A stretch of 64,000 nt of DNA, taken from Candidatus Bathyarchaeota archaeon. Its GTDB lineage: Archaea > Thermoproteota > Bathyarchaeia > Bathyarchaeales > Bathycorpusculaceae. The position numbers and the translations under genes are program-made. Of the stretch, positions 31,453 to 61,748 are shown in pieces; positions within the stretch are counted from its first letter, which is position 1; every line of letters begins with the position of its first letter. Where the stretch lies: the NCBI GenBank assembly GCA_963767735.1, contig CAVYES010000007.1:256001-320000 (forward strand). The letters run 5' to 3'. The notes below the pieces were generated by a model. That model was not told the origin of the DNA. It worked only from the letters and a program-made list of their open reading frames with translations, and did no database searches.

Positions 31453-31497
31453 GGCCCGATGGGATTTGAACCCATGACTTTCAGCTCAGAAGGCTGA
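31453..31497 (-). repeat. att site: duplicated 3' half of tRNA-Arg(TCT)
   Basis: ggcccgatgggatttgaacccatgactttcagctcagaaggctga is 44/45 identical to 49906-49950. Confidence 0.93.
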
Positions 31498-39675: not shown

Positions 39676-40257
39676 CCACCAACACTCCAGAAATCAAACC
39701 AAAAAAACTAAAGCCTCCAACACCAAAACAAAACTTAAAGACAACACTAACAAGTACCTTCACAACAGAAGAGAATTTGAACCAAGGGATCTCAATAGAC
39801 TTCAAGCTTCCGCTCCTCTTACTCCTAAGAAACAGAATTGAAGCCTTCCATTCTCACGCAATCCTCTTCAACCCTTAAACAAGCACAACCAAAAAAAACC
39901 ATATAAGTCATATTTCCAAAAACGTAATATGCCAAAAACAAAAAGGATTTCAGCTAAACAAAACAGTTTATGGCGAAAACTTTGTTTGCCATAGGGAAAG
40001 TAGCGATTTAAACAGCGGCTTTCGATTTTGCAGAATATTGTAGCTCCATTCCCTATCCCTTTGAGTGACTTACTTCGCTCAGGGACCAAGCATTTTTATT
40101 TTCTCAACCTGCGAAACCTGATGGACTTAACCCTTTTCGGGTCGCAACCTTATGGGATTTGACGCTAAAAGGGGGCAGAACCATATATTAAAATAAGAAA
40201 CTTTTAAGAAAAATCTGGAAAAATAACTCACAGAAACCAATCCTAGCCGGAAGCGAG

Positions 40258-40292
40258 CCGAGCCGTGCTTGAACCCAAACGGGTTCAAGCCG
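40258..40292. repeat. Palindromic repeat, copy 1
   Basis: ccgagccgtgcttgaacccaaacgggttcaagccg; hairpin gcttgaaccc/gggttcaagc. Confidence 0.85.
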
Positions 40293-40335
40293 TAAGTTTA
40301 AAAGCATAGTTGATGTCATGCCTAATCGGTTAACG

Positions 40336-42140
40336 TCACGAGAGCAGTCCATCAAACTCAGACTCGCGACCTAATTGTTCCTTAATAACTTGAAGTTGAG
40401 TTAGCATCATTTTCAGCTCGTTCAGTTTGTTCTTCACTTCAAGCTCGCTTATAGTTCGCAAATGCTCGGCTTCATAAACCGCTTGCTTCACGGTTTCAGT
40501 TGAAGATTCCAATGCTCGGTTAATATCCATTTTCAGCTTCAGAACAGCTTGGTCTATTCGAGTAATAAAATAGTCATACCTTATTCGCCCCCCATTCTTG
40601 TCGAATTCAGTTCTTGCTTTTTCCCGTATCTGCTTTTTCAGAATTCCCCCAAACAACGATTTTGGAAGAAGTTGCGCCATCTCTCCTCCACTAATTGTCA
40701 TACTAGCTGTAAAAATAGGGTCTAGATGATAGTAGAACCTAGTTTCAAAACTTAAGGAAGCATTAAAAACAGCGTCAGTTACTTGAAATCCAAAGAGTTT
40801 AGCTGCCTTCTGCCTGACATCCCCAATTAAGGTATTCATTTTTACGTTAGACTCATTCACTAACTGCTGAAATCGCTTCTCAGCTTTAAAATCTTCATCT
40901 TCAATGAATTCTGAGTAAACTTCGATCAACCTTTTCCTAAGGTAATCTTCCGCATAGCTGACAATTTTTCTAGAACTTATTTTTTCTGATTTGATCTTTT
41001 CTTCGGCAAAATCTTCGATTTGTTTTATCAGCAAATCTTCATGTTCTTTTTTAAAGATAGTTAAGTCACCGTCTAGCATGCTCACTATCTCTCTTACTCT
41101 TCCGTCCAATACATAGAAGAGTTCGCGTTTCTTGTTCTCAATCGAATCAAGATAGCGTTCGAATTCTAACAGAAGACTTGCAAGATTTTCTAAAGGCATT
41201 GTTAAGCTGTTGATTTCAAGTTGGACGTATGTGGTTAAATCTGATGCAGATTTTCCCAACTTATTTATTGCTGAGTTTAGTATCAGGCTTTCTTTCACAT
41301 TTATGAGCGATTCTTTGAGGGCTGTCTCGAAGTTCTTTATCCCGCTGCGCTCTACCAGATTTGGGTCATTGCCAAGTCGACCTTCTAGGGCTAATTTAGC
41401 CGATATTGGATAGATCCTCACTGCAGAGCCATGATTATGGCTGAGATGTTCGCTTATGATTTTTTGGCAATACTTTTCTGACTCATTTAGCGAGGCAGAA
41501 TCTACATAATCGATCTTGTTTAGAACAAATAGAATTTTGTTTGATTTCGATGCCAAATCAGTGAGAAGCTCGATTTCCTGCTGACCTACAGGCGGGTCAA
41601 CAGCAAAAACAAATACTGCAAAGTCAGCCCTGTCGAGGAACTGAAAGGTTATTTGTGTTCCACTAAGGTATGTTGAACCTACTCCTGGTGTATCAATCAG
41701 TATTAATCCATCCTTCAGAATCTGCGAAGGCACAAGAACGTCAGCACTGTCACATTCTATGTGTTGTCAGGGTTTCCTGCTTCAGAGACATATTTAGGTA
41801 GCTCTTGAATTGGCACTTCTTTTTCCGAACCATCGCCAAAACTAATCCTCGCAGTCGGGTCGTTGCCATACCTTATTCTTGTTATCACGGAAGTTACTGG
41901 AATAACGCCTGTCGGAACGATTGTTCTTCCTAGCATGGCGTTTATGAGAGTTGACTTTCCTCTTTTGAAAAGCCCGAGCAAAGCGAGATAAAACTCTTCT
42001 TTCGGCAGCTTATCCAGCACTTCATTCAGAAAATCTGCGATAGCCGTGTTGTTGGTTCTCTGAGCAATTTGTAATAATGTTTGTCCCGCGTTCTCAATTT
42101 CGGATTTAAGATAAGAATACTCTGACGATGAATTCACCAT
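40336..42140 (-). CDS. Bacterial-type dynamin-like GTPase (Dynamin_N), interrupted by one frameshift at about 41757
   Basis: G1 GLFKRGKST, G2 IPVT, G3 DTPG, G4 NKID, ISAK, and a long helical stalk. ATG at 42140 follows GGTGA. Adding one base joins the two ORFs. Confidence 0.85.
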
Positions 42141-42144
42141 TTTC

Positions 42145-42999
42145 TCACCCAATATAAAAAGGCTCAAAAGTGCTGAGTTTTTGAAGTGTTGTGATGGCGT
42201 AGTAGGTGTATTCAAAACTGGATATACCGAGGTCTGAGCGGGCAAAACCTCCGTTTTTGTTTTGGCACTTTAATATCCAATCTATCGTTTGTGTTTGATA
42301 CCTACCTTTTTCGCCAAGCAAATCAAGCGTCATTACGCCATAATAGACGTGTTCCATGTACGGCCCGAAATTTATCGGTGTAACTGTGAAGCCGCCGTAG
42401 GGTTTTTCGCATCCCCTCACGAACCTTACAGTGTCATGCAAATCCTGGAGGCTCTCCTTAAGAAGGCTCATAGAAGCAGTGGCGTAATAGGTTGAGTTAA
42501 TGTTTGATTCTCCCTGTGTTCCAAAACCTCCGTCATCATTTTTGAAATGAAGCAGCCACTCCGCCACTTCTTTCGTGTTAACTTTAATTTTCAGCAAATC
42601 AGCAAGCTCGAGTGCCATGAAGGTTGTCAAAAACTCTGAAGGGACTTCGGCGAAAACTTCTGTAGAGCTAAAGTACCTTTTTGAGTTTAGAATTGAAAGA
42701 GCGTGTTTTTTCTGTTTTGCGTCAACGTTTTTGCCAATTAACAGTGAAGTTTTGCTTAGGTAATAAATTGAGTATATGTTGTCTAAATGAATGACGTTTA
42801 TGAATTTTACAGTTTTTTCAATGTTAGGGAAATTTGTATTTAGTGCACTTAGAATATTTAATCCATAATATGTGTCTTGACCGTTTGACTCTGCGCCCTG
42901 GCAAAAAGTGTAACCACCGTCTTCGTTTTGACGATCAATTACGTAATTTGCTATCTTTTTGGTCCATGATGGGTCGGCTAGCTGCTTTACTTCAACCAA
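42145..42999 (-). CDS. Prenyltransferase/squalene-oxidase repeat protein (COG1689-like)
   Basis: Repeats RQNEDGGY, NDDGGFG, EKPYGGF, CQNKNGGFAR, each followed by TYYA/TYYG. Confidence 0.85.
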   Translation of the reverse strand: MVEVKQLADPSWTKKIANYVIDRQNEDGGYTFCQGAESNGQDTYYGLNILSALNTNFPNIEKTVKFINVIHLDNIYSIYYLSKTSLLIGKNVDAKQKKHALSILNSKRYFSSTEVFAEVPSEFLTTFMALELADLLKIKVNTKEVAEWLLHFKNDDGGFGTQGESNINSTYYATASMSLLKESLQDLHDTVRFVRGCEKPYGGFTVTPINFGPYMEHVYYGVMTLDLLGEKGRYQTQTIDWILKCQNKNGGFARSDLGISSFEYTYYAITTLQKLSTFEPFYIG

Positions 43000-43023
43000 T
43001 GGATTATCACTCTGATTTTAGTT

Positions 43024-43085
43024 GGTAGAAGCTATCAGTCTCTGCCTGTAAAGCAAAGGCGGTTGAAGGCGAGCCTCATCGCCAT
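43024..43085 (-). ncRNA. Fluoride riboswitch (crcB motif)
   Basis: Minus strand GGCGATGAGGCTCGCCTTCAACCGCC...GACTGATAGCTTCTAC: P1 GGCGA/TCGCC, loop GAGGC able to pseudoknot with GCTTC, conserved AAC and CTGAT...CTAC. It lies 25 nt upstream of the TTG start. Confidence 0.88.
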
Positions 43086-43109
43086 GTATTCTTGGAAAAG
43101 GTCTAACCC

Positions 43110-43124
43110 AATAAATAAGCTTTC
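43110..43124 (-). promoter_or_regulatory. Archaeal BRE/TATA promoter of the riboswitch operon
   Basis: GAAAGC-TTATTTAT about 25 nt upstream of the riboswitch 5' end. Confidence 0.55.
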
Positions 43125-43453
43125 TTCTTTAACAAAGGTGAAGGCGTAACAAACATCGCGCCTGTACAAAGTTTCCACAGTTAATGTAAAACAGGTTTGG
43201 CAGTTTCTTGGCAAGAGGAACTGCGCGTTGTTGGACTACAGTCGTCTTTCCCGAATGATTTCCTCGAACTACAGCGACAAACCGCGTCAAGTAAATTCTT
43301 TCTACGAAAAAAAGTAAGCGAATTTATTTATAAACACCCGCAGGACTCCCTTATAAGAAATATAAGCGAGGCTCTGTCAGACGGGTTAGTGACAGTAAGG
43401 CAAAGAAAGGTGTGTTTGGAAGTAGTCGATTTCAAAAAAGGGAAAATTAAAAC

Positions 43454-44710
43454 ATGAGCAGAGAAACAAAAGATACCCTGAAAAAAGAAAAGTGGCTAAA
43501 TAGGAATGTCGCCGCAATAGGACTTACAAGCTTACTTAGCGATTCGAGTCACGAGATGGTTACGGCCATTCTCCCATTTTTCCTTCTTGCAATAGGCGCT
43601 GGACCAGCAGCATTAGGGTTGATAGAAGGCTTTTCAGACGGCGCTTCAAGTTTTGTGAAGTCGTTTGCAGGATATCTTAGCGACAAAATCGGAAAAAGAA
43701 AACCGATTATGAACCTCGGTTATCTTTCAACAGGCGTTTTTATACCTCTTATTGCAGCAACGACTTCATGGTTTCAAGTTTTGGGCTTGCGGGTTGCTGC
43801 TTGGCTGGGAAGAGGCGCTAGAGGTCCACCCAGAGACGCTTTATTGACAGATTCAACTTCTTCAAAATCCATTGGGAAAGCTTTCGGCTTTGAAAGGGCA
43901 ATGGACACTGTAGGTGCCGTAATAGGGTCAGCTTTGGCGCTTCTCTTTTTGACATTTCTTAGTTATAGACAAATTATAACGGTATCTCTGATACCTGGTC
44001 TGGCAGCATTTTTTGTTGTCTTTTTTGTGGTTCGGGAAGTGCGAAAGAAACCATCTCCACAGGCTCCAATCGTCTCTACTCATGGTGATGTTTTTGTAAG
44101 AGACGACGGCTTTATTCAGTCAGTCAGGACGCTTCCAAGGTCGTTTAAGCTTTTTCTCGTTGGAGTAGGCGTTTTTGGGTTGGGTAATTTTGCTAACAGT
44201 CTTTTAACTTTGCGTGCTCAAGAGGTCTTGGCGCCTAAAGTTGGTTCATTTGAAGCTTCAGTCATTGCTGTTGGCTTATATGTTCTGCTTAACGTTTCCT
44301 ATGCAGCTTTCTCGTTTCCCGTTGGTGCGTGGAGTGATAAAATCGGTAGGAAGAGAATTCTTGCGACAGGTTATTTTATATGCGCTATAGTTTGTTTGGC
44401 TACTGCTTTTCTCACGCCTGACTTTTTGGTGTTGGTTCCATTGTTCTTCGCTGCGGGAGTTTTTACAGCGATAACGGATACTATACAGGGGAGTGCGGCA
44501 GCGGATTTGTTGCCCACAGGGTCGAGGGGAACGGGTTTTGGCGTATTGCAGACAGTTAACGGCATTGGTGACTTTGTATCGAGCACTGTAGTTGGTGGGC
44601 TTTGGGTGCTTATATCACCGCTTGTAGCCTTCTCGTATGCAGCCGTACTTTCAACGGCTGGAGGCATCATCCTCCTTTATCTAACTCGAGGAAATCACCC
44701 GCTGAAATAA
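43454..44710 (+). CDS. MFS transporter
   Basis: GYLSDKIGKRK and WSDKIGRKR motifs, RGPPRDALL, about 12 TMs. Confidence 0.92.
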   Translation: MSRETKDTLKKEKWLNRNVAAIGLTSLLSDSSHEMVTAILPFFLLAIGAGPAALGLIEGFSDGASSFVKSFAGYLSDKIGKRKPIMNLGYLSTGVFIPLIAATTSWFQVLGLRVAAWLGRGARGPPRDALLTDSTSSKSIGKAFGFERAMDTVGAVIGSALALLFLTFLSYRQIITVSLIPGLAAFFVVFFVVREVRKKPSPQAPIVSTHGDVFVRDDGFIQSVRTLPRSFKLFLVGVGVFGLGNFANSLLTLRAQEVLAPKVGSFEASVIAVGLYVLLNVSYAAFSFPVGAWSDKIGRKRILATGYFICAIVCLATAFLTPDFLVLVPLFFAAGVFTAITDTIQGSAAADLLPTGSRGTGFGVLQTVNGIGDFVSSTVVGGLWVLISPLVAFSYAAVLSTAGGIILLYLTRGNHPLK

Positions 44711-44907
44711 ATTGATAGATAAAAATCAAATCACGCGCTTTAAGCTTTGCTTATTGTAATATTTTTGGTGTTGTCTACTGTGATACTCAAAAAGAGAATT
44801 GCCTGAGTCAACGGTTCACTTCTGCGGATTTATGCGTTCGCTTTGCACGTTGACTTCGCATGTGCGTTTCTACGGAGGGAATGTGTACTTTCGACGCATA
44901 GGATGGT

Positions 44908-44941
44908 CCGAGCCGAACTTGAACCAAACGGGTTCAAGCCG
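44908..44941. repeat. Palindromic repeat, copy 2
   Basis: ccgagccgaacttgaaccaaacgggttcaagccg. Confidence 0.85.
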
Positions 44942-45125
44942 CCATCATTTTCTCTTCTGTTAACCTTCTAATTGATTGAAACAAGCGAATTTTAACATTT
45001 TAATAGGTTTTCATAAGCGGGCGCTTTAAGACTTATCATCAATTAAAACTTAACTAAGTTACTTTAAAGTACAAAGCAAAGCATTATTAGTCCCGTATGG
45101 TCGCATGTGGCTTGAGTGGGGATGT

Positions 45126-45302
45126 ATTAAAAGAGCAGAAGCAGTAGCTCTTCTAAAAGAGTTATGTTCAGAACAGTTAATTCAACCATCTTTAGTTCTT
45201 ATTGAACAGAGAAAACCCGATAAATACCAGTTATGCGTTAAAGGCGATTATGACCTTCAACGACTAGGAGTATTTCTTCAAAAAATACACTTTGTCATTT
45301 GA
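45126..45302 (+). CDS. Small hypothetical protein (possible ATT start; possible 3' frameshift)
   Basis: (I)KRAEAVALLKELC...YQLCVKGDYD. Confidence 0.5.
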   Translation: MKRAEAVALLKELCSEQLIQPSLVLIEQRKPDKYQLCVKGDYDLQRLGVFLQKIHFVI

Positions 45303-45344
45303 AGAGGGCACAAAAGGTCTATGTATTTTAAGCTATAGGAAAGA

Positions 45345-45470
45345 CTATTTCGTTAATTTGAAACAGCAATTACAATTCGTGCAGGTATAAGCTTCGACAT
45401 GAAATATACTGTTTTCAAATACTTTGTCTGGCTTAGAAACTTCATTTCCACAGTTAGGACATTTAGCCAA
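45345..45470 (-). CDS. Small zinc-ribbon protein (41 aa)
   Basis: MAKCPNCG...YTCTNC. Confidence 0.6.
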   Translation of the reverse strand: MAKCPNCGNEVSKPDKVFENSIFHVEAYTCTNCNCCFKLTK

Positions 45471-45558
45471 CAAGCGTTGCCATCCAACTTTACCAAGTTG
45501 GCGTGAAATTGTTATAAGCTTTTGTTGGCACAACTTGATTCAACAAACAATCTGAACC

Positions 45559-45738
45559 TTACCTATCGCATTTCTTTTCTTCGTCCATCAGTTGAGCTAG
45601 GGTGTAGGTTATATAGGCTGAGAAGCTGTGAATGCCTTTTTTAATGGCGTATTCCTCTTTGACCTTAAGCCACTCGTTAAAAAAGTAATCGTAAACCTCA
45701 GCTTTTACAGTGATGCTTTTAAAGCCTTTTTTCGGCGT
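45559..45738 (-). CDS. Ribbon-helix-helix-like DNA-binding protein (ACG at the start position)
   Basis: (M)PKKGFKSITVKAEVYDYF...SFSAYITY; AGAGGG SD upstream; not in the ORF track. Confidence 0.6.
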   Translation of the reverse strand, partial: TPKKGFKSITVKAEVYDYFFNEWLKVKEEYAIKKGIHSFSAYITYTLAQLMDEEKKCDR

Positions 45739-45857
45739 TTTGTTTCCCTCTTAAGCTAGTTAGCGGACGTATGTTTATATAAGGTTTCATGCAGTACTGT
45801 TTCACCGTTAATTATATATTTAATTGTACGGTAAAGTACTTTTGGAGATTGGTAGTT

Positions 45858-46004
45858 TTGCCACGTAAAGGATACAAATGCATAACAATTACCGACAAAG
45901 TTCACGCAGAAATCAAAAAAAGAGCCAAAGAAACCAACCGCACATTGAGAGAATATGTAGAAGACTTGTTTGCTAAGGACAAAGTTGATAAAAAAGCGGC
46001 TTAA
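45858..46004 (+). CDS. Ribbon-helix-helix-like DNA-binding protein
   Basis: MPRKGYKCITITDKVHAEIKKRAKETNRTLREYVE; GGAG SD. Confidence 0.65.
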   Translation: MPRKGYKCITITDKVHAEIKKRAKETNRTLREYVEDLFAKDKVDKKAA

Positions 46005-46236
46005 CCACAAATTCTATTATTGCTGAATGAGCTTTTTTTGCTTTTTCTTCATATAGACCATATTCTTAATGTGGATTGATTTTGAGTAAAGTCATCAATG
46101 GACTCAGCAGACTTCTCTCTCAGGTACGAACATTATTAATACTAGTTAGTTAGCTAGCCAATGTATAGTAGTAGTCATCATGGACTTAATTTAACGCTAA
46201 CAAATTGAACTATATCTTTGGATTTTTGCAATAGCA

Positions 46237-49200
46237 TTGGATTCAGAGAGAGAGAAAAAGAATTATCTGAAAGGAGTCTTGCATGTGTCTAAAGTTGAAC
46301 AATCGGTAATTACGGTGGGAATTGGCGCTTCCGCGGGCGGCTTAGAAGCGTTCAAGGTTTTGTTCGAATGTTTGCCTGTTGATACGGGTTTGTCTTTTGT
46401 CGTTATTCAGCATCTGGCGGCTGGTCAGGAAAGCATGCTGACGGACATTCTTTCAAGATTTACTAAAATGCCCGTCCAAGCAGTCAAAGATGGACTGTCG
46501 GTTGTGCCAAACCATGTTTATGTGATTCCGCCTGGAACAATCATGACCATGGAAAATAAGGTCCTCAAACTCAACTCAACGGGTAAGTCTGTGAAACCCA
46601 TAGATGCTTTCTTTGTTTCATTGGCTGAAAACTTGAAAACTCAAAGCTTAGGAATTGTGCTCTCAGGAACGGGGTCTGATGGAACCGAAGGGCTAAAAGC
46701 TATAAAAGCTCAGGGAGGAATCACCTTTGCACAAACTCCAGTCACCGCACAGTACGGTGACATGCCTCAAAGTGCAATTTCAGCGGAAGCTGCAGATTTT
46801 GTTCTGCCTCCAGACAAAATAGCACAAGAACTGCAAAAAATCGCCAATAATCCTCAACTAGCACGAAGCGAAATCGCAGCAAAAGAAGAAACTGGATTAA
46901 AAGAAATAAAGCCAAAAAAGGCAACAGGCCTAAACTCAATATTCACCATGCTAAAATCTGAATGCAATGTTGATTTCTCACACTTCAAAGAAACAGTTGT
47001 AAACAGGCGTGTCACACGCCGGATGGTAATTAACCACATAGAAAAAATGGCCAATTACGCAAACTACCTTCAAACACATCCAGAAGAGCTGGCGGCATTA
47101 TACTCTGACATGCTAATCGGCGTAACAAGCTTCTTCAGAGAACCTGAAACATTTGAAGCACTAAAAGAAACGGTGTTTCCAGCACTAATTAAAAACCGCT
47201 CACCCAAAGAACCTATCAGAGTTTGGATCCCAGGATGCTCAACAGGAGAAGAAGCGTATTCCTTCGCTATAGCAATACAAGAGTACCTCAAAGAAAATGC
47301 CATAACAAACATTCAGGTTCAAATTTTCGGCACTGACGTGAACGAAAAAAACATTGAAAAAGCAAGACATGGAACCTACCCGCCAACCATAGAAACCGAC
47401 GTACTCGAAACGCGATTAAAACATTTCTTCGCAAGCTCTGACGGCAACTATCAAATCACAAAATCTATTCGGGACATGTGTGTTTTCGCCAAGCAGGACA
47501 TAACCGCTGATCCGCCGTTCTCCAATATGGATCTTATCAGTTGCCGCAACATGCTAATTTACTTTGATGAGTACCTTCACGAAAGAGTAGTGCCTACTCT
47601 GCATTATGCATTGAAGACCGGTGGTTTTCTCGTTGTTGGACAATCTGAAAGCATCGGAAAATTCACCCAGTTATTTGAACCTGTAGGCAAGAAGGGTGCG
47701 ATCTACGTAAAAAAGAGGGCGCAGCCTAGCATTACTTTTGGTCTTCAAGCGACGGCGCCTTATCTTAAGCGTAAACAGGGCAGAGAAGGCGAGCATAAAG
47801 ATGCCCTGGTAGTGTTGAAGGACGAGGTTGATCGTTTGTTGGTTACTGAATATGTTCCTGCAGCGTTGCTAGTTAATGCTGATTTGGATGTTCTCATTTT
47901 TCGGGGAAATATTGTACCGTACATTGTGCCTGAATCGGGATTGGCGAGTTTGAATCTGGCAAAGATCATTCGAAAAGAACTAAGGTCTGAAGTGCAGACG
48001 ATAATCTATAGGGCAAGTAAAGAGAACAAACATGTCAAAGAAAATGCCGTGCGCTTTGAATATTCTGGAGAGCAGAAAACAATCAACATCCAAGTTGTTC
48101 CATTGCATGTTGAACAGTATGAAGCACCATTTTTCCTCGTGTTGTTTGAAGACGTTAGTTCAGCGGCAGCGCTTCTACGCCAAACCATGTCGTTAAATAT
48201 GACGGCTGAAGGTCGAGAAAACGTTAAGGACCGTCAAAATAGAGAGCTCAGGGAAGAGTTGGATTCAACTAAGCAAACTTTGCAGAGAATTATTGAAACT
48301 CAGGAAGCAACAAACGAAGAACTCAGAACTACTATGGAGGAGGCGCAGTCGAGCAATGAGGAGCTTCAGAGCACAAATGAGGAATTGGAAACTGCAAAGG
48401 AAGAGCTTCAATCTAGCAATGAAGAATTAAAAACGTTAAATGACGAGGTCAAGAACCGAAACCAAACACTTGCGCTGCTGAATGATGACTTAACTAATTT
48501 GAATAGGAACATTGATCCAGTCGTTGTTATCATCGATAAAAGCCTTAAAATTAGGTTGTTTTCGCCTTCAGCGCGGAAAATTTTGAATCTTTCGCCATCA
48601 ACAGTTGGGCTGCCAATTACAAGTATCAAACTGGGCATAGCAGTTGAAGATTTGGGAGAAATAATTTCAGAAGTGATTTCAAAACTGAGCGGTTTCAATA
48701 AAGAAGTGCAGGATGGGCAGGGTCATTTTTATGAGTTGCGAGTTCGACCTTACATAACACAAGAAGACAAAATAGACGGCGCTGTTTTGTCGTTTGTCGA
48801 TATTGATGACAGAAAGAAGCTTGAAAAAGTTCAACGGTTGGCGGCGATAGGCGAGACAGCTGGCATGGTGGGTCATGATATTCGCAATCCGCTTCAAGCT
48901 ATAATTGGCGATATCTATTTGGCTAGAACAGAATTGGCTTCGACTCTGGAGAGCGAAGAGAAAAAGTGTGCGTTAGAGAGTTTGGAGGAGATCGAAAAGA
49001 ACATTGATTACATTAACAAAATTGTGTCAGACCTTCAAGACTACGCAAAAACGATTAATCCTGTTGCTCAAGAAACAAACTTGGAAGCCTTATGCAAGGA
49101 GCTGCTACAAGGGAAAGATGTTCCGAAAAACATCAAAGCAACGTGTAATGTTGACAGTACAGCTAAAATAATTGTGGTTGACGGTACTTTGTTAAAACGT

Positions 49201-49509
49201 GTTCTTGGAAATCTGGTTTCTAATGCAATTCAAGCTATGCCAAACGGCGGAGAGCTGACTCTTAGGGCACATCAGGAAGCAAGTGACATGGTCATCGCTA
49301 TTCAGGATACAGGCATCGGCATCCCTGATAAAGTCAAGCCGAAGCTTTTCACTCCATTATTCACCACTAAATCGAAAGGGCAAGGCTTAGGATTAGCCGT
49401 AGTCAAGCGTATGGTCGAAGCATTAAACGGAACTGTAACTTTTGAAAGCGTAGAAGGAAATGGCACGACTTTCATTATTCGTTTCCCCCTTAACAAGAGG
49501 CATATCTAA
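46237..49509 (+). CDS. CheB methylesterase / CheR methyltransferase / PAS / histidine kinase fusion
   Basis: GASAGG, LSGTGSDG, TSFFRE, GCSTGEEAYS, SCRN, NEELQS coiled coil, HDIRNPL, DTGIG, GLGL. Confidence 0.93.
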   Translation: MDSEREKKNYLKGVLHVSKVEQSVITVGIGASAGGLEAFKVLFECLPVDTGLSFVVIQHLAAGQESMLTDILSRFTKMPVQAVKDGLSVVPNHVYVIPPGTIMTMENKVLKLNSTGKSVKPIDAFFVSLAENLKTQSLGIVLSGTGSDGTEGLKAIKAQGGITFAQTPVTAQYGDMPQSAISAEAADFVLPPDKIAQELQKIANNPQLARSEIAAKEETGLKEIKPKKATGLNSIFTMLKSECNVDFSHFKETVVNRRVTRRMVINHIEKMANYANYLQTHPEELAALYSDMLIGVTSFFREPETFEALKETVFPALIKNRSPKEPIRVWIPGCSTGEEAYSFAIAIQEYLKENAITNIQVQIFGTDVNEKNIEKARHGTYPPTIETDVLETRLKHFFASSDGNYQITKSIRDMCVFAKQDITADPPFSNMDLISCRNMLIYFDEYLHERVVPTLHYALKTGGFLVVGQSESIGKFTQLFEPVGKKGAIYVKKRAQPSITFGLQATAPYLKRKQGREGEHKDALVVLKDEVDRLLVTEYVPAALLVNADLDVLIFRGNIVPYIVPESGLASLNLAKIIRKELRSEVQTIIYRASKENKHVKENAVRFEYSGEQKTINIQVVPLHVEQYEAPFFLVLFEDVSSAAALLRQTMSLNMTAEGRENVKDRQNRELREELDSTKQTLQRIIETQEATNEELRTTMEEAQSSNEELQSTNEELETAKEELQSSNEELKTLNDEVKNRNQTLALLNDDLTNLNRNIDPVVVIIDKSLKIRLFSPSARKILNLSPSTVGLPITSIKLGIAVEDLGEIISEVISKLSGFNKEVQDGQGHFYELRVRPYITQEDKIDGAVLSFVDIDDRKKLEKVQRLAAIGETAGMVGHDIRNPLQAIIGDIYLARTELASTLESEEKKCALESLEEIEKNIDYINKIVSDLQDYAKTINPVAQETNLEALCKELLQGKDVPKNIKATCNVDSTAKIIVVDGTLLKRVLGNLVSNAIQAMPNGGELTLRAHQEASDMVIAIQDTGIGIPDKVKPKLFTPLFTTKSKGQGLGLAVVKRMVEALNGTVTFESVEGNGTTFIIRFPLNKRHI

Positions 49510-49707
49510 GCAATGCACATTAGTCTAGTTCTGCACCATGAGTAACAGGCTTGATGAACATTTATTTTTAAGACTGATTTAGCAAATTTTCTCAATCTTC
49601 TAAATAATTCGCTAAGATGATAAAACAAGAAGGCACTTTTAACTTAAAACTGGAGTTGCCCGAACAAATTGGGGCTCAGACCGTGCAGGGGATGAGTCTA
49701 ATTTGGG

Positions 49708-49742
49708 CCGAGCCGAACTTGAACCTAAACGGTACTAACCCG
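49708..49742. repeat. Palindromic repeat, copy 3 (degenerate right arm)
   Basis: ccgagccgaacttgaacctaaacggtactaacccg. Confidence 0.75.
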
Positions 49743-49903: not shown

Positions 49904-49978
49904 CGGGCCCGATGGGATTTGAACCCATGACTTTCAGCTTAGAAGGCTGACGCGCTATCCGTACTGCGCCACGGGCCC
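49904..49978 (-). tRNA. tRNA-Arg (anticodon TCT), intronless, CCA not encoded
   Basis: GGGCCCG/CGGGCCC acceptor stem, TCAGC-CTTCTAA-GCTGA anticodon arm, ATGGG-TTCAAAT-CCCAT T arm. Confidence 0.96.
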
Positions 49979-50053
49979 TCTTGCGGGCACTCTAATGAAA
50001 ACACTTACAAATATAATTTTATCCCTGAGTATCTGCGTTTATTATATAGTGTT

Positions 50054-51256
50054 CTAAATGTAGCTGGAGAATCTTTTCGGTTTTCTGTAACAGTGAACTT
50101 GCAATCCGTTGATAGCGAGCTCATCGTATTTTATCCAGCCTGCCTGACCAAGCTTCATAATTTCCTCAACAGTCGTCGCGGTTGTTGTCTCAAATTGGTC
50201 ATCCTTGAATTCGATCATGCCAATGTATTTCATGCTGTTTTCAATACGCTTATGACCCAATAGCTTCTTTACTAATAACACGTTGCCGTTTGTGTGGTAG
50301 GCAATCATTGTGCCTCCCCAATGTCTGAAGGTCCTTAGTTCTATCTTTAGAATTCGAGGGTTTTGCTGTAGGTTCGCCACTCGCTTTCTCACGTGGTTAT
50401 AGGTGTAGATGATGCTTCGGTAGGTTGTTGGAAAGACTCTTTGCGATACTCTTGGTAAGCAGTTAATCATTGATAGCAGACGACTTGAAACCTTAAGGGT
50501 TCTTGGCAAGTGGCCTTTTACTGGATGGTTGATCTTAATAGTTTGTTCTTTCTCAGAGATGTCTATCCATTCGATTCTTAGGGCTTCTGAGGGGTCGCCG
50601 TAGGTTTCTTTGAGGGTTTGAAGATAGGTTGCTACTCGTCGCGATTTGCAGGCGCTTATCAAGGCATCAAGCTCTGACTCGTCGGGGATAAATGGAATGA
50701 TTTCTTCTTGCCTGTATTTTGGTGGCTTCCAAGTTATCTTCATCATTGTTACGAGGGCATTGTATGCGTAGACGTACTGCAGTTTCATGCCGTCCTTGAC
50801 TTTTTGTCTTCCGATGACTGCTTTAACGTCTTCGGGATCTCGCAGGTTAGCACCAAGCCTTGCGAGACGTCGAATAACGTTTGGGTATTGTGTTTCGTCG
50901 CTGAATCCTTCTTTCTCCAGGTATGCTAGGAACTGAGCAACTAATCCAGCTGCGTCAGGTGGCAGTTTTGCATCTCCCGCACAAACTTTGGTTTTTTGTC
51001 GTGCGGTTTCCAAATTTTTCGCACCTTCGATGATTGCGCCTATTTGGCGTTTAGAATGTAAGGCAATTGGACTATTTAATAACCAGTTTGGGTTTTTTTG
51101 TAACGGCTTCTCAGAAAACCTGTAACCGCAATCACGGCATAGCCATCGCTGAACTGAATTCTCTTTTGAGAGGTAGCGTAATCCGTCCTTGTACAGTCTA
51201 TTCGAACCGCATTGAGGACATAGGACGCTCAAGGAGTCTGGATTTGGCAACTGCAT
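50054..51256 (-). CDS. Tyrosine recombinase/integrase with N-terminal zinc ribbon
   Basis: CPQCGS...QRWLCRDCG; C-terminal TFRHW, LLGHKRIENSMKY; adjacent to a tRNA. Confidence 0.88.
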   Translation of the reverse strand: MQLPNPDSLSVLCPQCGSNRLYKDGLRYLSKENSVQRWLCRDCGYRFSEKPLQKNPNWLLNSPIALHSKRQIGAIIEGAKNLETARQKTKVCAGDAKLPPDAAGLVAQFLAYLEKEGFSDETQYPNVIRRLARLGANLRDPEDVKAVIGRQKVKDGMKLQYVYAYNALVTMMKITWKPPKYRQEEIIPFIPDESELDALISACKSRRVATYLQTLKETYGDPSEALRIEWIDISEKEQTIKINHPVKGHLPRTLKVSSRLLSMINCLPRVSQRVFPTTYRSIIYTYNHVRKRVANLQQNPRILKIELRTFRHWGGTMIAYHTNGNVLLVKKLLGHKRIENSMKYIGMIEFKDDQFETTTATTVEEIMKLGQAGWIKYDELAINGLQVHCYRKPKRFSSYI

Positions 51257-52023: not shown

Positions 52024-53190
52024 ATGAAGAATCTAAAGAAAATCTTCCGGGTCATAATTCTGATTACATTGATTCTCGTCTTGTCAGCTGCCAACATGGT
52101 TCACGCTCAAGTAACCGCCACGATATCGGTTGGATTTGGACCGGAAAGCGTAGCATATGATTCGGGAAAGAGAGAAATATTTGTAACTCTTTTTGGCCTA
52201 AATAACACGGTTTCGGTTATATCTGATCGCAATAATAGTGTTGTTGCAAGCGTAAACGTAGGAAACCAACCTAGCGGGGTAGCCTATGATTCTGGCAAGA
52301 GCGAAATCTTCGTAGCAAATGAGGACGACAATACGATCTCAATAATTTCCGACAAAAATAACACCGTTGTTGCAACAGTTCCTGTGGGAACTAATCCTGT
52401 CGGCATAGCTTACGATTCTAGCAAGGGCGAAATATACGTAGTCAATCAAGGTTCCAACTCAGTCTCTATCGTATCGGACAGCAATAATTCTGTCGTAGCA
52501 ACCTTAGCTTTAAACAGTCCTATGGACGTAGCCTATGATTCTGGCAAGAACGAAATTTTCGTAGCTAACGGAAATGAAAACGCAGTAACAGTCATATCAG
52601 ACAAAAACAACAGTATTATTGATACGATTCCAGCTGGAAACAGCCCATATTACTTAGCCTATGATTCTGGCAAAGGCGAAATATTCGTGAGTGGTTTAAC
52701 TGACAGCATTATTTCGGTCATATCGGATAGCACGAACACTGTGGTTGCAAACGTGTCTGTAGCGCAAGGTTCCTATCCAACCGGTCCTTGGGCGATGGCT
52801 TATGATTCAGGTAAGGGCGTAGTGTTTGCAGCCACGGAGGGTGATAGTTCTGTCGGTTCAGGCTGGGTCTCGGTCATATCAGACAGTACCAATAAAGTAT
52901 TGGGCATACTTAACGTAGTGAAAGCCAATCTTGTAGGAATAACCTATGATGACGCCATGAGCGAAGTATTCGTCGCTAATGTTGCTGATGGAACAGTTTC
53001 AGTGATATCAGATTCCTATCTCCCATCCATAACTCCAAGTCCAACGGCATCTGCTTCCCCAAGTCCAACTGTTCCAGAGTTTGGCAGTGCAGGTCTCATT
53101 TTAGTGATGGCAGCAGTGGTGACTGCGACCCTATGTGCGGTTGCATTGACAGTCAGAAAATCGACCCGAACTGGCTTTGATTCGAACTAG
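52024..53190 (+). CDS. Secreted YVTN/YncE beta-propeller with PEF-type C-terminal sorting signal
   Basis: Signal peptide, about 7 repeats of AYDSGKxEIFVAN...VSVISD, P/S/T linker, VPEFG + TM + basic tail. Confidence 0.9.
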   Translation: MKNLKKIFRVIILITLILVLSAANMVHAQVTATISVGFGPESVAYDSGKREIFVTLFGLNNTVSVISDRNNSVVASVNVGNQPSGVAYDSGKSEIFVANEDDNTISIISDKNNTVVATVPVGTNPVGIAYDSSKGEIYVVNQGSNSVSIVSDSNNSVVATLALNSPMDVAYDSGKNEIFVANGNENAVTVISDKNNSIIDTIPAGNSPYYLAYDSGKGEIFVSGLTDSIISVISDSTNTVVANVSVAQGSYPTGPWAMAYDSGKGVVFAATEGDSSVGSGWVSVISDSTNKVLGILNVVKANLVGITYDDAMSEVFVANVADGTVSVISDSYLPSITPSPTASASPSPTVPEFGSAGLILVMAAVVTATLCAVALTVRKSTRTGFDSN

Positions 53191-54321: not shown

Positions 54322-56380
54322 CCAACTTCACCTGTATGCGTTTCTTGAAGGAAACCAACAAACCAGTAGCGTCGAATATTTCCAAATGTACCTCAGTTTT
54401 TGGTTTTCTTGCTTTTCCTAAATACAAGTACAGCCCAACTGTAACGATTGCCGCGATGACTACGCCAGTTACTACTCCATAGATTGCTTCTTGAAGTAAA
54501 CTTGACTGCGGTGTAGGGCTATGAGACACTGGCGTGCTGTTTGGGGTTGTTGTGAATACGATTGATATTTGGTGTGTGCTGAAGCTGGTTGTGTACCATA
54601 CGTAGTAGTTGTTGCTGTCTTGGGTGTAGCCTTGGTTTTGGGCAAGTTGGTCGTCGATGTAGATTGTCGGCGATGTTCCGTAAGTTACTGCGCTTATCGG
54701 GATGGTTATGTTGCCAAAGCCAGTTGTGCCACTTTGTCCTGTTACAGTGAAAGAAACCGTTGTTGTTTTGTCTGACTGGTTTGTTGTGATTGTTACGTTG
54801 GACATTTGTGAAATGGTTACATTCCCGCCCAGTATAAGGTCAACAGTTGCGCCATTCTCAGTCGTTGCAGGAACTGTTGCGCTCGCGCTAACAATAACCC
54901 AAACTCCTGATATTGGAAAACTGTCGTAATCACCATAGCCTGCCGAATCGCTTATGTTAAGAGAAATGTCATATGTTCCAGGTGTGGATTCGACGAACGT
55001 AAAGGTTGATGATGTGGCACCTGGAAACGCAACAATAGGTCCTTCTGGCGAACCCCCTACTGAAGTCCACAACTGCGTGTCCCACTGATAAATATATGGC
55101 GGATTTCCAGACGTTGGGTTTGCTGTGATTTCAACCGGTTGATTCACATACGTATATTGAATGAATGACTGCTTAATGCTCATCGATATTCCAGTAACAA
55201 TTCCAATTGGCTTTGGTGGCGGTGTTGGTGTCGGAAAAGGTGTTGGAATTTGAGTTGGCGTAGATGAACCACCAAAAGCATAAACGTTATCGTCATCGGA
55301 GCCTACATACACTATCCCGTTAACGACAGCAGGAGACGACTCAACCATGCCGCCAGTTGGGTAACTCCAGAGTTTGGTGCCGCTTGTAGCGTTCAAGGCA
55401 TAAACGTTATCGTCATCGGAGCCTATGTAAATTACGTTGTCAACAACAGCAGGAGACGAAGTAAACTCGTCCCGGAAAGTGTCAACGTTCCCGATGTTGT
55501 AACTCCAGAGTTCTGCTCCGTTCGCAGCGTTCAAAGCATAAACATAGCCGTTACCTGATAATATGTATACCACATCGTTGACGATAGCAGGAGACGAATC
55601 AACGGGATCGCCAGCAAAGTAACTCCAGAGTTGGTTGCCGCTCGTGGCGTTCAAAGCATAAACGTTACCATCATCCGAGCCTACACACACTACCCCGCCG
55701 ACAACAGCAGGAGATGAGTGAACCTCTCCGTTGGTAGCGTAACACCAGAGCGGGACGCCGTTGGTAGCGTTCAAAGCATAAACGTTACCGTCATCGGAGC
55801 CTACATACACTACCCCGTTCACAACGGCAGGCGACGAGTCAACATAGCCGCTAGTGGTGTAATTCCAGAGTTTGTCGCCGTTAGTAGCGTTCAAAGCATA
55901 AATGTTTCTATTAAATGAGGCTATGTATACAACGCCGTTTAAGACAGCTGGAGACGCCCAAACCCAGTCACTAGTATTGTAATTCCAAAGTTTGACGCCG
56001 TTGGTAGCGTTCAAAGCATAAACGTTACCGTCAAACGAGGCTATGTATACTACGCCGTTGAAGACGGCAGGAGATGAAAAAACATCGTCACCTGTGGTGT
56101 ACTTCCAGAGTTGGATGCCACTTGTAGCGTCCAAAGCATAAACGTTGCCATCCTCGGAACCTATGTAAACTACGCCGTTGACAACAGCGGGAGACGAATA
56201 AACACTGTTAGCTGTGAGGTATTTCCAGACTAAGGTTGGGTAAGGTTGTGGATTGCCTATGCCGACGCCATCGTGAGACGGGTCCGAGCGGAACATTATC
56301 CAATCCGCGTTCGCAAATGGAACCAAAACTAAGCTGAAAAGAAAAATTATGCAAATTAATGCTCCGGCGGTTTTTTTCAT
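54308..56380 (-). CDS. Cell-surface PQQ-repeat beta-propeller protein with PKD-like domain and C-terminal TM
   Basis: Eight SSPAVVNGVVYIGSDDGNVYALNAT.G..LW repeats (about 120-bp DNA repeats, 55270-56220). Confidence 0.92.
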   Translation of the reverse strand: MKKTAGALICIIFLFSLVLVPFANADWIMFRSDPSHDGVGIGNPQPYPTLVWKYLTANSVYSSPAVVNGVVYIGSEDGNVYALDATSGIQLWKYTTGDDVFSSPAVFNGVVYIASFDGNVYALNATNGVKLWNYNTSDWVWASPAVLNGVVYIASFNRNIYALNATNGDKLWNYTTSGYVDSSPAVVNGVVYVGSDDGNVYALNATNGVPLWCYATNGEVHSSPAVVGGVVCVGSDDGNVYALNATSGNQLWSYFAGDPVDSSPAIVNDVVYILSGNGYVYALNAANGAELWSYNIGNVDTFRDEFTSSPAVVDNVIYIGSDDDNVYALNATSGTKLWSYPTGGMVESSPAVVNGIVYVGSDDDNVYAFGGSSTPTQIPTPFPTPTPPPKPIGIVTGISMSIKQSFIQYTYVNQPVEITANPTSGNPPYIYQWDTQLWTSVGGSPEGPIVAFPGATSSTFTFVESTPGTYDISLNISDSAGYGDYDSFPISGVWVIVSASATVPATTENGATVDLILGGNVTISQMSNVTITTNQSDKTTTVSFTVTGQSGTTGFGNITIPISAVTYGTSPTIYIDDQLAQNQGYTQDSNNYYVWYTTSFSTHQISIVFTTTPNSTPVSHSPTPQSSLLQEAIYGVVTGVVIAAIVTVGLYLYLGKARKPKTEVHLEIFDATGLLVSFKKRIQVKLGGHG

Positions 56381-56932: not shown

Positions 56933-57002
56933 CTGTTCTATGAGAACCCAGGTAAACCGTATACTATATAGTAATCGTTTCACCCAAGTTTCCATAGAAC
57001 AG
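56933..57002. repeat. 70-bp imperfect palindrome, copy A
   Basis: ctgttctatg...tactat|atagta...catagaacag; 26/35 Watson-Crick pairs with no gaps. Confidence 0.85.
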
Positions 57003-59524: not shown

Positions 59525-59807
59525 TATTCGCACTTTGAAGAGTAATTGAGCTTTGCAGACTAAAAAACTTGCACTAATAGAGACTGATCTAAGGATTCCT
59601 GAATTATTCGCCGATTTTATCGAGGGCAGACTTTCTCAGAAGATAAAAACATCTAAAAGGCTTACAATAATCGCCCAAAAAGCTTAGAAAAACCAATTGA
59701 TTTGCCAACCGCTTAGAAAGATTCTCATCTTTAAAATCGAAATTTGTTTTTTTTCAAGCGTCAACAGCCTCAATAAACATAATTAGACTTAAAATGTTTG
59801 TAAAAGG

Positions 59808-59883
59808 TAAGCGTGGGGGGATTTGAACCCCCGTCTTGGGAATGCGAATCCCCATGCTCTAATCCGGGCTAAGCTACACGGGC
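59808..59883 (-). tRNA. Degenerate tRNA-like gene (apparent anticodon CGC), probably a pseudo-tRNA
   Basis: D arm GCTT/GAGC, TGGG(G)A-TTCGCAT-TCCCA, T arm GGGGG-TTCAAAT-CCCCC; the acceptor stem has only 4/7 Watson-Crick pairs. Confidence 0.6.
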
Positions 59884-61678: not shown

Positions 61679-61748
61679 TCGTCCTATGGAAAACAGGGTA
61701 AACCGATTACTATATAGTAAGTGATTTACCCAATTTTTCATAGAACAG
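61679..61748. repeat. 70-bp imperfect palindrome, copy B
   Basis: 54/70 identical to copy A without gaps, same tactatatagta centre. Confidence 0.85.

Follow-up and report, generated by a model that had tools for sequence, protein, structure and literature searches.

Repeats in a Bathyarchaeia genome that probably mark integration of small integrase-less modules at a tRNA-Val 3′ end

A 64,000-nt window of the Candidatus Bathyarchaeota archaeon assembly GCA_963767735.1 (contig CAVYES010000007.1, here C7:256001-320000), part of a 95%-complete Bathyarchaeia metagenome-assembled genome (MAG) of 3.04 Mb in 10 contigs, contains three similar repeats, referred to as copies 1 to 3. We consider it likely that these repeats are attachment (att) junctions arising from site-specific integration of small non-autonomous modules that target the 3′ end of tRNA-Val(UAC). 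As read from their sequences, two modules lacking an integrase, one with a fluoride-responsive operon and one with a CheBR-kinase gene, appear to be stacked head to tail in the window, as judged from shared ends. G, C and L numbers denote genomes, contigs and loci, this genome being G000.

Three repeats with a tRNA-Val core and an inverted T-loop arm

The repeats start at positions 40258, 44908 and 49708, all on the plus strand, with spacings of 4650 and 4800 bp. The 18-nt pattern CCGAGCCGNNCTTGAACC (at most two mismatches) gives 3 matches in the window vs. 0.02 expected, a number reached in 0 of 100 shuffled sequences, and a repeat finder groups the three copies as one 37-nt family. All three are located between long open reading frames (ORFs), overlapping only ORFs of 53-58 aa; the pattern match and the ORF map thus confirm the same-orientation intergenic copies reported in an earlier first-pass annotation of this DNA. 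Its description of the copies as palindromic holds for copies 1 and 2, which are predicted to form DNA hairpins (-13.0 kcal/mol, z -4.8, and -9.4 kcal/mol, z -2.6, respectively) situated downstream of genes, and fails for copy 3, which has lost its second arm and forms no hairpin (z -0.8). Searching the whole genome with at most one mismatch recovers the three window copies, one further copy at C7:140829 and two true tRNA genes; at most three mismatches gives 28 matching places.

The minus strand of each copy ends as the last 22 nt of tRNA-Val(UAC), from the T-loop to the discriminator base. The only TTCAAGT T-loop in the ARAGORN tRNA list belongs to the tRNA-Val(TAC) gene at C5:149219-149294, whose 3′ end is matched at 21/22 positions by c3, 20/22 by c2 and 18/22 by c1. 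In c1 and c2, an arm, GGCTTGAACCC, is located 4-5 nt upstream of this core and repeats the T-loop segment GGTTCAAG in inverse form, which explains the palindrome noticed previously. The c1 and c2 arms are near-identical over 16 nt. The sites, their flanks and the DNA between them are as follows.

40254..40292, minus strand: site c1; core 40254-40275 (18/22, 'CA' variant), 4-nt spacer, arm GGCTTGAACCC, 10-bp hairpin
44904..44941, minus strand: site c2; core 44904-44925 (20/22, 'TT' variant, ending in ACCA), spacer, arm CGGCTTGAACCC
49704..49742, minus strand: site c3; core 49704-49725 (21/22), degenerate arm (11/16 to c1/c2, by eye), no hairpin
49660..49703, minus strand: flank Y1; ~44 nt directly 3′ of core c3 in the tRNA sense
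44879..44903, minus strand: flank Y3; directly 3′ of core c2, homologous to the first ~25 nt after the intact tRNA-Val of G138
40293..44878, no strand assigned: module A; dynamin-like GTPase ORFs, prenyltransferase-like protein, fluoride riboswitch, 86-aa ORF and major facilitator superfamily (MFS) transporter, no integrase
44942..49659, no strand assigned: module B; small unassigned ORFs, a 430-bp genus-conserved block and a CheB-CheR-PAS-HK gene (HK, histidine kinase), no integrase

Read in the tRNA sense, the order in the window is decayed arm, core 3, Y1, CheBR-kinase module, arm, core 2, Y3, fluoride/MFS module, arm and core 1. Y1 also follows the intact tRNA-Val in G018 and G030, and an attR-type site in G138 and G003. 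Core c2 together with Y3 is 85% identical over 47 nt to the tRNA-Val end of G138, and both ends of module A match the G138 element (85% over 47 nt for core plus Y3, 90-92% over 40 nt for arm plus core), the cargo being different. Where the tRNA has TC, the Val cores recurrently show TT, CA or TA, and these variants lie on the element side, 5′ of the probable crossover, which would fall within the last ~12 nt of the core.

Homologous sites in relatives and across the class

The core pattern is present in 24 of 61 related genomes, all of the same genus, and most of the matches are the tRNA-Val gene itself. Only 4 of the 120 genomes from the genus carry the Val-type palindrome, namely the present one, G089, G108 and G138. 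In G138:C40, an intact tRNA-Val is followed by a 1.8-kb insert and then by arm, core and Y1; in G108:C11, by a 3.78-kb insert, arm and core; and in G003, by a 1.4-kb insert and a slightly decayed arm and core, an end whose orthologue is carried by G089. Y1 lies directly after tRNA-Val in G018 and G030, representing the empty state, and comparison of G138 with these two genomes reveals a clean insertion polymorphism in which the core is duplicated. The pooled cargo of the G138, G108 and G003 inserts comprises an ABC ATPase with a membrane protein, a winged helix-turn-helix (wHTH) protein with decayed surface-protein ORFs, and a PLD nuclease; no integrase (PF00589) is encoded in any of the three. 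The cores as copies of tRNA-Val(UAC), and the homologous sites closing inserts beside the intact gene, bear out the alternative mentioned in the first-pass annotation, that the repeats are successive att scars resembling a tRNA 3′ end.

Copies of the ABC module of G138 (1.8 kb) are also present elsewhere, with 92.9% identity over 1812 nt in G108:C6 and 91.7% identity over 1679 nt in both G030:C2 and G004:C44. These three copies occupy a locus different from the G138 tRNA-Val site, and their downstream flank is orthologous to that of the fourth copy of this genome, at C7:140829. The G108:C6 copy keeps the arm, with the match extending through the core, and in G030:C2 and G004:C44 the match ends ~75 nt before the arm, which is replaced and followed by a tRNA-Val-like core. 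The insertion polymorphism and the presence of the ABC module in two loci show that breakpoints coincide with the core. The check proposed earlier, whether the motif marks presence/absence breakpoints, accordingly gives a positive result for the homologous tRNA-Val sites and the ABC module in relatives; no such breakpoints were seen for the modules of the window itself. Logan contigs of four sequencing runs (X1-X4; ≤0.28 of sampled words) consisted of short low-depth pieces without joints, showed no excision products and were uninformative either way; in one X2 contig the site is present once more, in different surroundings.

The arm design is not confined to tRNA-Val. The palindrome TTGAACC-N4-7-GGTTCAA is found in 46 of 120 genus genomes, with 84 sites vs. 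24 for a reversed control (own count). Of 30 loci inspected, 18 run on into a tRNA 3′ end (Ala-CGC, Ala-TGC, Arg, Val-like and others), and the cores of the recurrent design in the genus are Val, Ala, Arg and Ser; the remaining 12 have no tRNA 3′ end, several belonging to a separate TGCAGG-centred repeat. Just outside the arm, the base tends to be complementary to the one that follows the T-loop motif (C with G in 5 Val sites; T with A in 13 of the 19 sites whose core has A, by eye), and this pairing beyond the arm suggests selection for symmetry. In literature searches, no listed title or abstract opening described an inverse T-loop copy beside a tRNA core.

Of 38 ORFs located no more than 1.5 kb from the 18 sites that run on into a tRNA 3′ end, one gave an integrase match, at the C5 locus of this genome. 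Among 11 loci with enough contig, a matching intact tRNA lies 1.9-15.7 kb upstream in 5 (four Ala, one Ser), one has an unrelated tRNA-Pro only, and five have no tRNA (three of them on contigs ending within 10 kb). The 39 ORFs in the five tRNA-bounded inserts gave no PF00589 match, and tblastn with both integrase types introduced below (A and B) was also empty. Across the class, 16 of 401 genomes (7 of 131 genera) contain the arm combined with a general T-loop motif, and none matches the control pattern. G420:C2 (L160, 159000-178999) has four same-strand arm-plus-core sites within 14 kb, delimiting modules of 1.3, 6.7 and 6.0 kb that carry glycoside hydrolases, an aquaporin, MscL and a HerA-like ATPase. 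None of its 16 ORFs is an integrase, and ARAGORN finds no tRNA gene within 40 kb.

A second array is present in this genome at C5:107812-115076. It consists of a palindromic arm with a 25-nt tRNA-Ala core, a 0.8-kb insert with an apparent nucleotidyltransferase/HEPN-like pair (read by eye), a copy of 52 nt of tRNA-Ala, an integrase of type A that is broken, and lastly a copy of 20 nt.

Candidate recombinases and alternative explanations

In the proposed mechanism, the site consists of the 22-nt tRNA core and, as seen in c1 and c2, an element-side 11-nt arm positioned 4-6 nt upstream, inverse to the T-loop segment; strand exchange within the last ~12 nt of the core would be carried out by a trans-acting tyrosine recombinase. 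Because the array lies away from tRNA-Val and inside a tRNA-Arg island, it may either have been carried into that island or have been parted from tRNA-Val by a later rearrangement.

The adjacent recombinase and the two ends of the tRNA-Arg island are as follows.

50054..51256, minus strand: tyrosine recombinase 'type A', 400 aa, with an N-terminal zinc ribbon; neighbour of the array
49904..49978, minus strand: tRNA-Arg(TCT), intact and intron-less; attL end of a separate island (45-nt direct repeat)
31453..31497, minus strand: partial copy of tRNA-Arg(TCT), its 3′ 45 nt, 98% identical; other end of the 18.4-kb island

Two observations of the first-pass annotation are correct here, namely the proximity of copy 3 to tRNA-Arg (161 nt) and the identity of ORF 50054-51256 as a tyrosine integrase (Pfam 26.4 bits; PHROG integrase, E 1.7e-17). 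This recombinase is, however, probably not the enzyme acting on the three sites. Among 29 type A relatives in other genomes, tRNA-Asn is located ~1.65 kb away in 5, the other fetched flanks contain no tRNA, and no palindromic site is listed beside any of the 29. In this genome, the type A paralogues have as neighbours a tRNA-Ala copy of 52 nt, the 3′ half of a tRNA, or the 5′ side of a tRNA-Pro that has a 20-nt copy of its 5′ end 31.8 kb away. By these neighbours, 50054-51256 goes with the class of long cores, to which the 45-nt tRNA-Arg repeat is also due, rather than with the short-core sites.

A second integrase family, type B (435 aa), offers a lead. It is encoded 44-121 nt downstream of T-loop/tRNA-3′-end sequence in 73 of 75 metagenome loci with usable upstream DNA, and the intervening arm holds GGTTCAAAACCACAAA (at most two mismatches) in 37 of 80 loci; the reverse complement of GGTTCAAAACCACAAA, which has one occurrence in this genome, is the arm in 12 of 18 palindromic sites. 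The palindrome itself was found in 0 of 80 type B metagenome loci. In 50 such loci the available sequence continues for 2-10 kb downstream; none of these has another 22-nt core (at most three mismatches), and one has an exact repeat of at least 12 nt, so that the link consists of the common 15-nt arm motif. This genome has an apparently intact type B copy at C5:83009-84271, 63% identical to the G003 protein, which may be put forward, as a lead only, as a candidate helper in trans. In many metagenome contigs (L164-L243), the contig end lies 120-340 nt from the start of the type B integrase, which immediately follows a tRNA, suggesting that assemblies break at the type B tRNA/att junction.

Several results weigh against integration at tRNA-Val as the origin of the array. 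No recombinase is assigned to the three sites. The only tRNA-Val gene is on C5, and none was found in the window. The region of 22-64 kb is a mosaic relative to the five closest relatives, with almost every gene boundary a synteny break, and in these genomes, which are too rearranged, the empty site of the window's own modules was not found. Genes of module A are clustered in G026, G072 and G030, with no core (at most three mismatches) in 8 loci, and homologues of the CheBR-kinase in many genomes match only to the gene end, never to the repeat; neither window module is therefore seen elsewhere as a repeat-bounded unit. Finally, Y1 after core 3 stands at the head of the array, not the tail, which simple tandem insertion does not predict unless Y1 is an element arm.

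Some of these results would also be expected if the sites were unrelated old relics joined by rearrangement, with hypervariable chromosome, not modules, between them. The mosaic region, the module genes found elsewhere without flanking sites and the decay of c3 all favour such relics, as does the splitting of the ancestral tRNA-Val locus over contigs C5, C6 and C7 of this genome (the tRNA-Val neighbourhood of G018/G030 maps to C5 on one side and to C6 on the other). We nevertheless consider this explanation unlikely, since all three copies have the same orientation, module A has both ends of the G138 element, and independent decay would hardly leave the c1 and c2 arms near-identical over 16 nt.

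The picture originally preferred in the first-pass annotation, an integron-like platform in which the adjacent integrase 50054-51256 captures and stacks cassettes next to tRNA-Arg, is very improbable. The layout does fit, with an integrase no more than 350 bp from c3, palindromic sites on one strand, and modules that lack an integrase. However, the enzyme scores 37.2 bits against the XerA/integron-integrase model NF040815, for which the cut-off is 220; its 29 relatives have no such site listed beside them; its paralogues here adjoin long (52 nt) tRNA copies or tRNA 5′ ends; the homologous sites at tRNA-Val in relatives have no such integrase nearby; and the modules are 4.7 kb long, multi-gene and bidirectional. 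The annotation itself had pointed out that the RYYYAAC and GTTRRRY ends of attC are missing from all three copies, which direct reading confirms (no attC covariance model was run). Its link between tRNA-Arg and the repeats is likewise unsupported, the tRNA-Arg belonging to the separate island with the 45-nt repeat. What survives of its cassette idea, in weaker form, is that modules lacking an integrase do lie between the sites, their ends being conserved and their cargo variable, the integron being discarded.

Exploitation of the host Xer system, with inverted arms that mimic dif and a Xer recombinase that moves the modules, is more improbable still. The 10-11-nt inverted arms with a 4-6-nt spacer resemble the dif layout as given in an excerpt of PMC8371274 (two 11-nt inverted repeats and a 6-nt spacer), and the modules lack an integrase, but this 95%-complete genome has no XerA over the family cut-off (best 90 bits vs. 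220), the insertion point is a tRNA 3′ end and not dif, and the element-specific dinucleotide puts the crossover outside the spacer of the palindrome. Least credible is a REP-like (repetitive extragenic palindromic) or terminator hairpin repeat without a role in recombination: copies 1 and 2 do form stable hairpins downstream of genes, but copy 3 has none, the conserved half is a tRNA 3′ end, the Val-type palindrome is restricted to the 4 of 120 genus genomes, and four copies in 3.04 Mb, one beyond the three of the window when tRNA genes are set aside (at most one mismatch), rule out a dispersed REP and the genome-wide scatter considered in the annotation.

Known systems, cargo and the surrounding island

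In streptococci, integrative conjugative and mobilizable elements (ICEs and IMEs) include cis-mobilizable elements that arise by site-specific accretion, in which att-flanked stacked modules without a recombinase are thought to be moved in trans. The modules described here resemble them in having att sites at both ends, no recombinase and a stacked arrangement. They differ in that the streptococcal elements are bacterial, linked to conjugation and have a known cognate integrase, whereas no helper element and no transfer genes were identified here. With dif sites and Xer-exploiting elements the modules share the geometry of arm and spacer and the lack of an integrase; they differ in targeting the 3′ end of a tRNA, and no XerA of this genome reaches the cut-off.

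Integron cassettes are mostly single promoterless ORFs with attCs less than 4 kb apart, unlike the window, where the intervals are 4650 and 4800 bp, genes occupy both strands and a riboswitch is included; the units considered here as a whole are multi-gene, bidirectional and 1.3-6.7 kb long. As integrons are outlined in an excerpt of PMC9668308, the likeness is an array of integrase-less units that end in an imperfect palindrome and have variable cargo, and the difference is that an IntI-specific integrase, attC R/L boxes and attI are all absent here, the site being derived from a tRNA.

The closest precedent is archaeal integration at tRNA genes. According to part of a Thaumarchaeota survey, att direct repeats copy the 3′ part of the tRNA, with a median core of 17 bp (PMC6563490), and passages there and in PMC8371274 describe how re-use of archaeal tRNA sites gives arrays of elements integrated by tyrosine recombinases and how integrase genes are often lost after integration. 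The present sites agree with such arrays, as these excerpts portray them, in their short core copying the tRNA 3′ part and in re-use of the site (PMC6563490, PMC8371274). They depart from them in the arm, an inverted T-loop copy that makes the site a palindrome, in that all homologous inserts examined lack an integrase, and in that the array is detached from its tRNA gene. Serial site-specific integration at a tRNA-derived site is thus, by the same excerpts (PMC6563490, PMC8371274), a known kind of event; the palindromic arm design and the consistent absence of a recombinase are less ordinary, and constitute a variant worth recording.

None of the inserts examined has a recombinase, and yet their cargo is adaptive, with transporters, the fluoride-responsive operon, a kinase of the chemotaxis type, aquaporin/MscL and glycoside hydrolases. 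Should such modules be moved by an enzyme acting in trans, accessory genes would have here a main route of flux in an abundant class of uncultured soil and sediment archaea. A bolder proposal, which we regard as doubtful, is that Bathyarchaeia hold a functional analogue of the integron on tRNA ends, in which a resident tRNA-adjacent tyrosine recombinase would, in trans, capture, stack and shuffle integrase-less multi-gene modules through the ~40-nt sites at their ends, each combining a tRNA 3′ core with an inverted T-loop arm, and new modules would be formed by excision of the chromosomal DNA between two dispersed cores.

Among 18 ORFs scanned between 36.8 and 54.3 kb, PF00589 has no match except the neighbouring 50054-51256. 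The regulatory element of module A is listed below.

43019..43092, minus strand: fluoride riboswitch, 44.2 bits; cargo of module A

Its position confirms that copies 1 and 2 bracket the fluoride module, as annotated. It precedes the prenyltransferase-like ORF and the two dynamin-like GTPase ORFs, the MFS transporter being divergent. The genes behind it (40336-42999, minus strand) encode a prenyltransferase/terpene-cyclase-like alpha-alpha toroid and dynamin-like proteins, not a fluoride channel. The riboswitch and the first gene behind it are conserved at 86% in G030 and G105. In G026, the riboswitch is present a second time close by.

For module B, the annotation's labels stand in part: the CheBR-kinase is confirmed as a 1090-aa CheB-CheR-PAS-histidine-kinase, the ribbon-helix-helix (RHH) protein has no family support, and the Zn-finger has only a LIM match (E 0.0098). 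The kinase gene (46237-49509) is multi-copy across the genus, with about 65-82% nucleotide identity and often at contig ends, and this genome has a second copy at C7:237737-240231. A block of ~430 bp at 45571-45996 has 75-88% identity in dozens of genus genomes, exceeding the conservation of the neighbouring genes; it overlaps ORFs of 71 and 84 aa and has no Pfam or PHROG family and no Rfam match.

The three-site array is situated at the inner end of the 18.4-kb tRNA-Arg island, which contains all three sites and is bounded by the 45-nt direct repeat of the 3′ half of tRNA-Arg(TCT) (31453-31497 and 49906-49950). In G004, G018 and G030 (L089, L091, L092), the tRNA-Arg(TCT) has a 24-nt intron after the anticodon, which the window copy lacks, and the intact gene adjoins a lysine-aminomutase pair, a place occupied in this genome by the partial copy alone. 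Since the 45-nt repeat starts in the anticodon stem, integration appears to have swapped an intron-containing 3′ half for an intron-less one. A weak tRNA-Arg-like T-arm remnant (11 exact nt) is located at 40120-40182 beside a GGTTCTGCCCC motif, which also follows the intact tRNA-Arg; the remnant may be a decayed inner att site splitting the 18.4-kb island in two.

On the other side of tRNA-Arg, the motif ATAAACGCAGA (50030-50045) was considered as an att candidate and rejected, with 2 window matches vs. 1.5 expected and an occurrence without integrase in G004. The motif follows the stop codon of type A homologues (L064-L067, L075) and lies ~20 nt before EF1-alpha, thermosome and tRNA-Arg promoters. 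No copy of the tRNA-Arg 5′ end bounding an element to the right of the integrase was found in the window.

The window contains further repeats. One of 68 nt, internally palindromic (56935-57002 and 61681-61748; 79% identical, 4746 bp apart), flanks tRNA-Ala(CGC) at 59806-59883 and has no relation to the three sites. Tandem repeats also occur inside ORFs, with a unit of 120 nt at 55275-56274 and of ~125 nt at 52213-52892, the latter in an NHL/beta-propeller protein (52024-53190).

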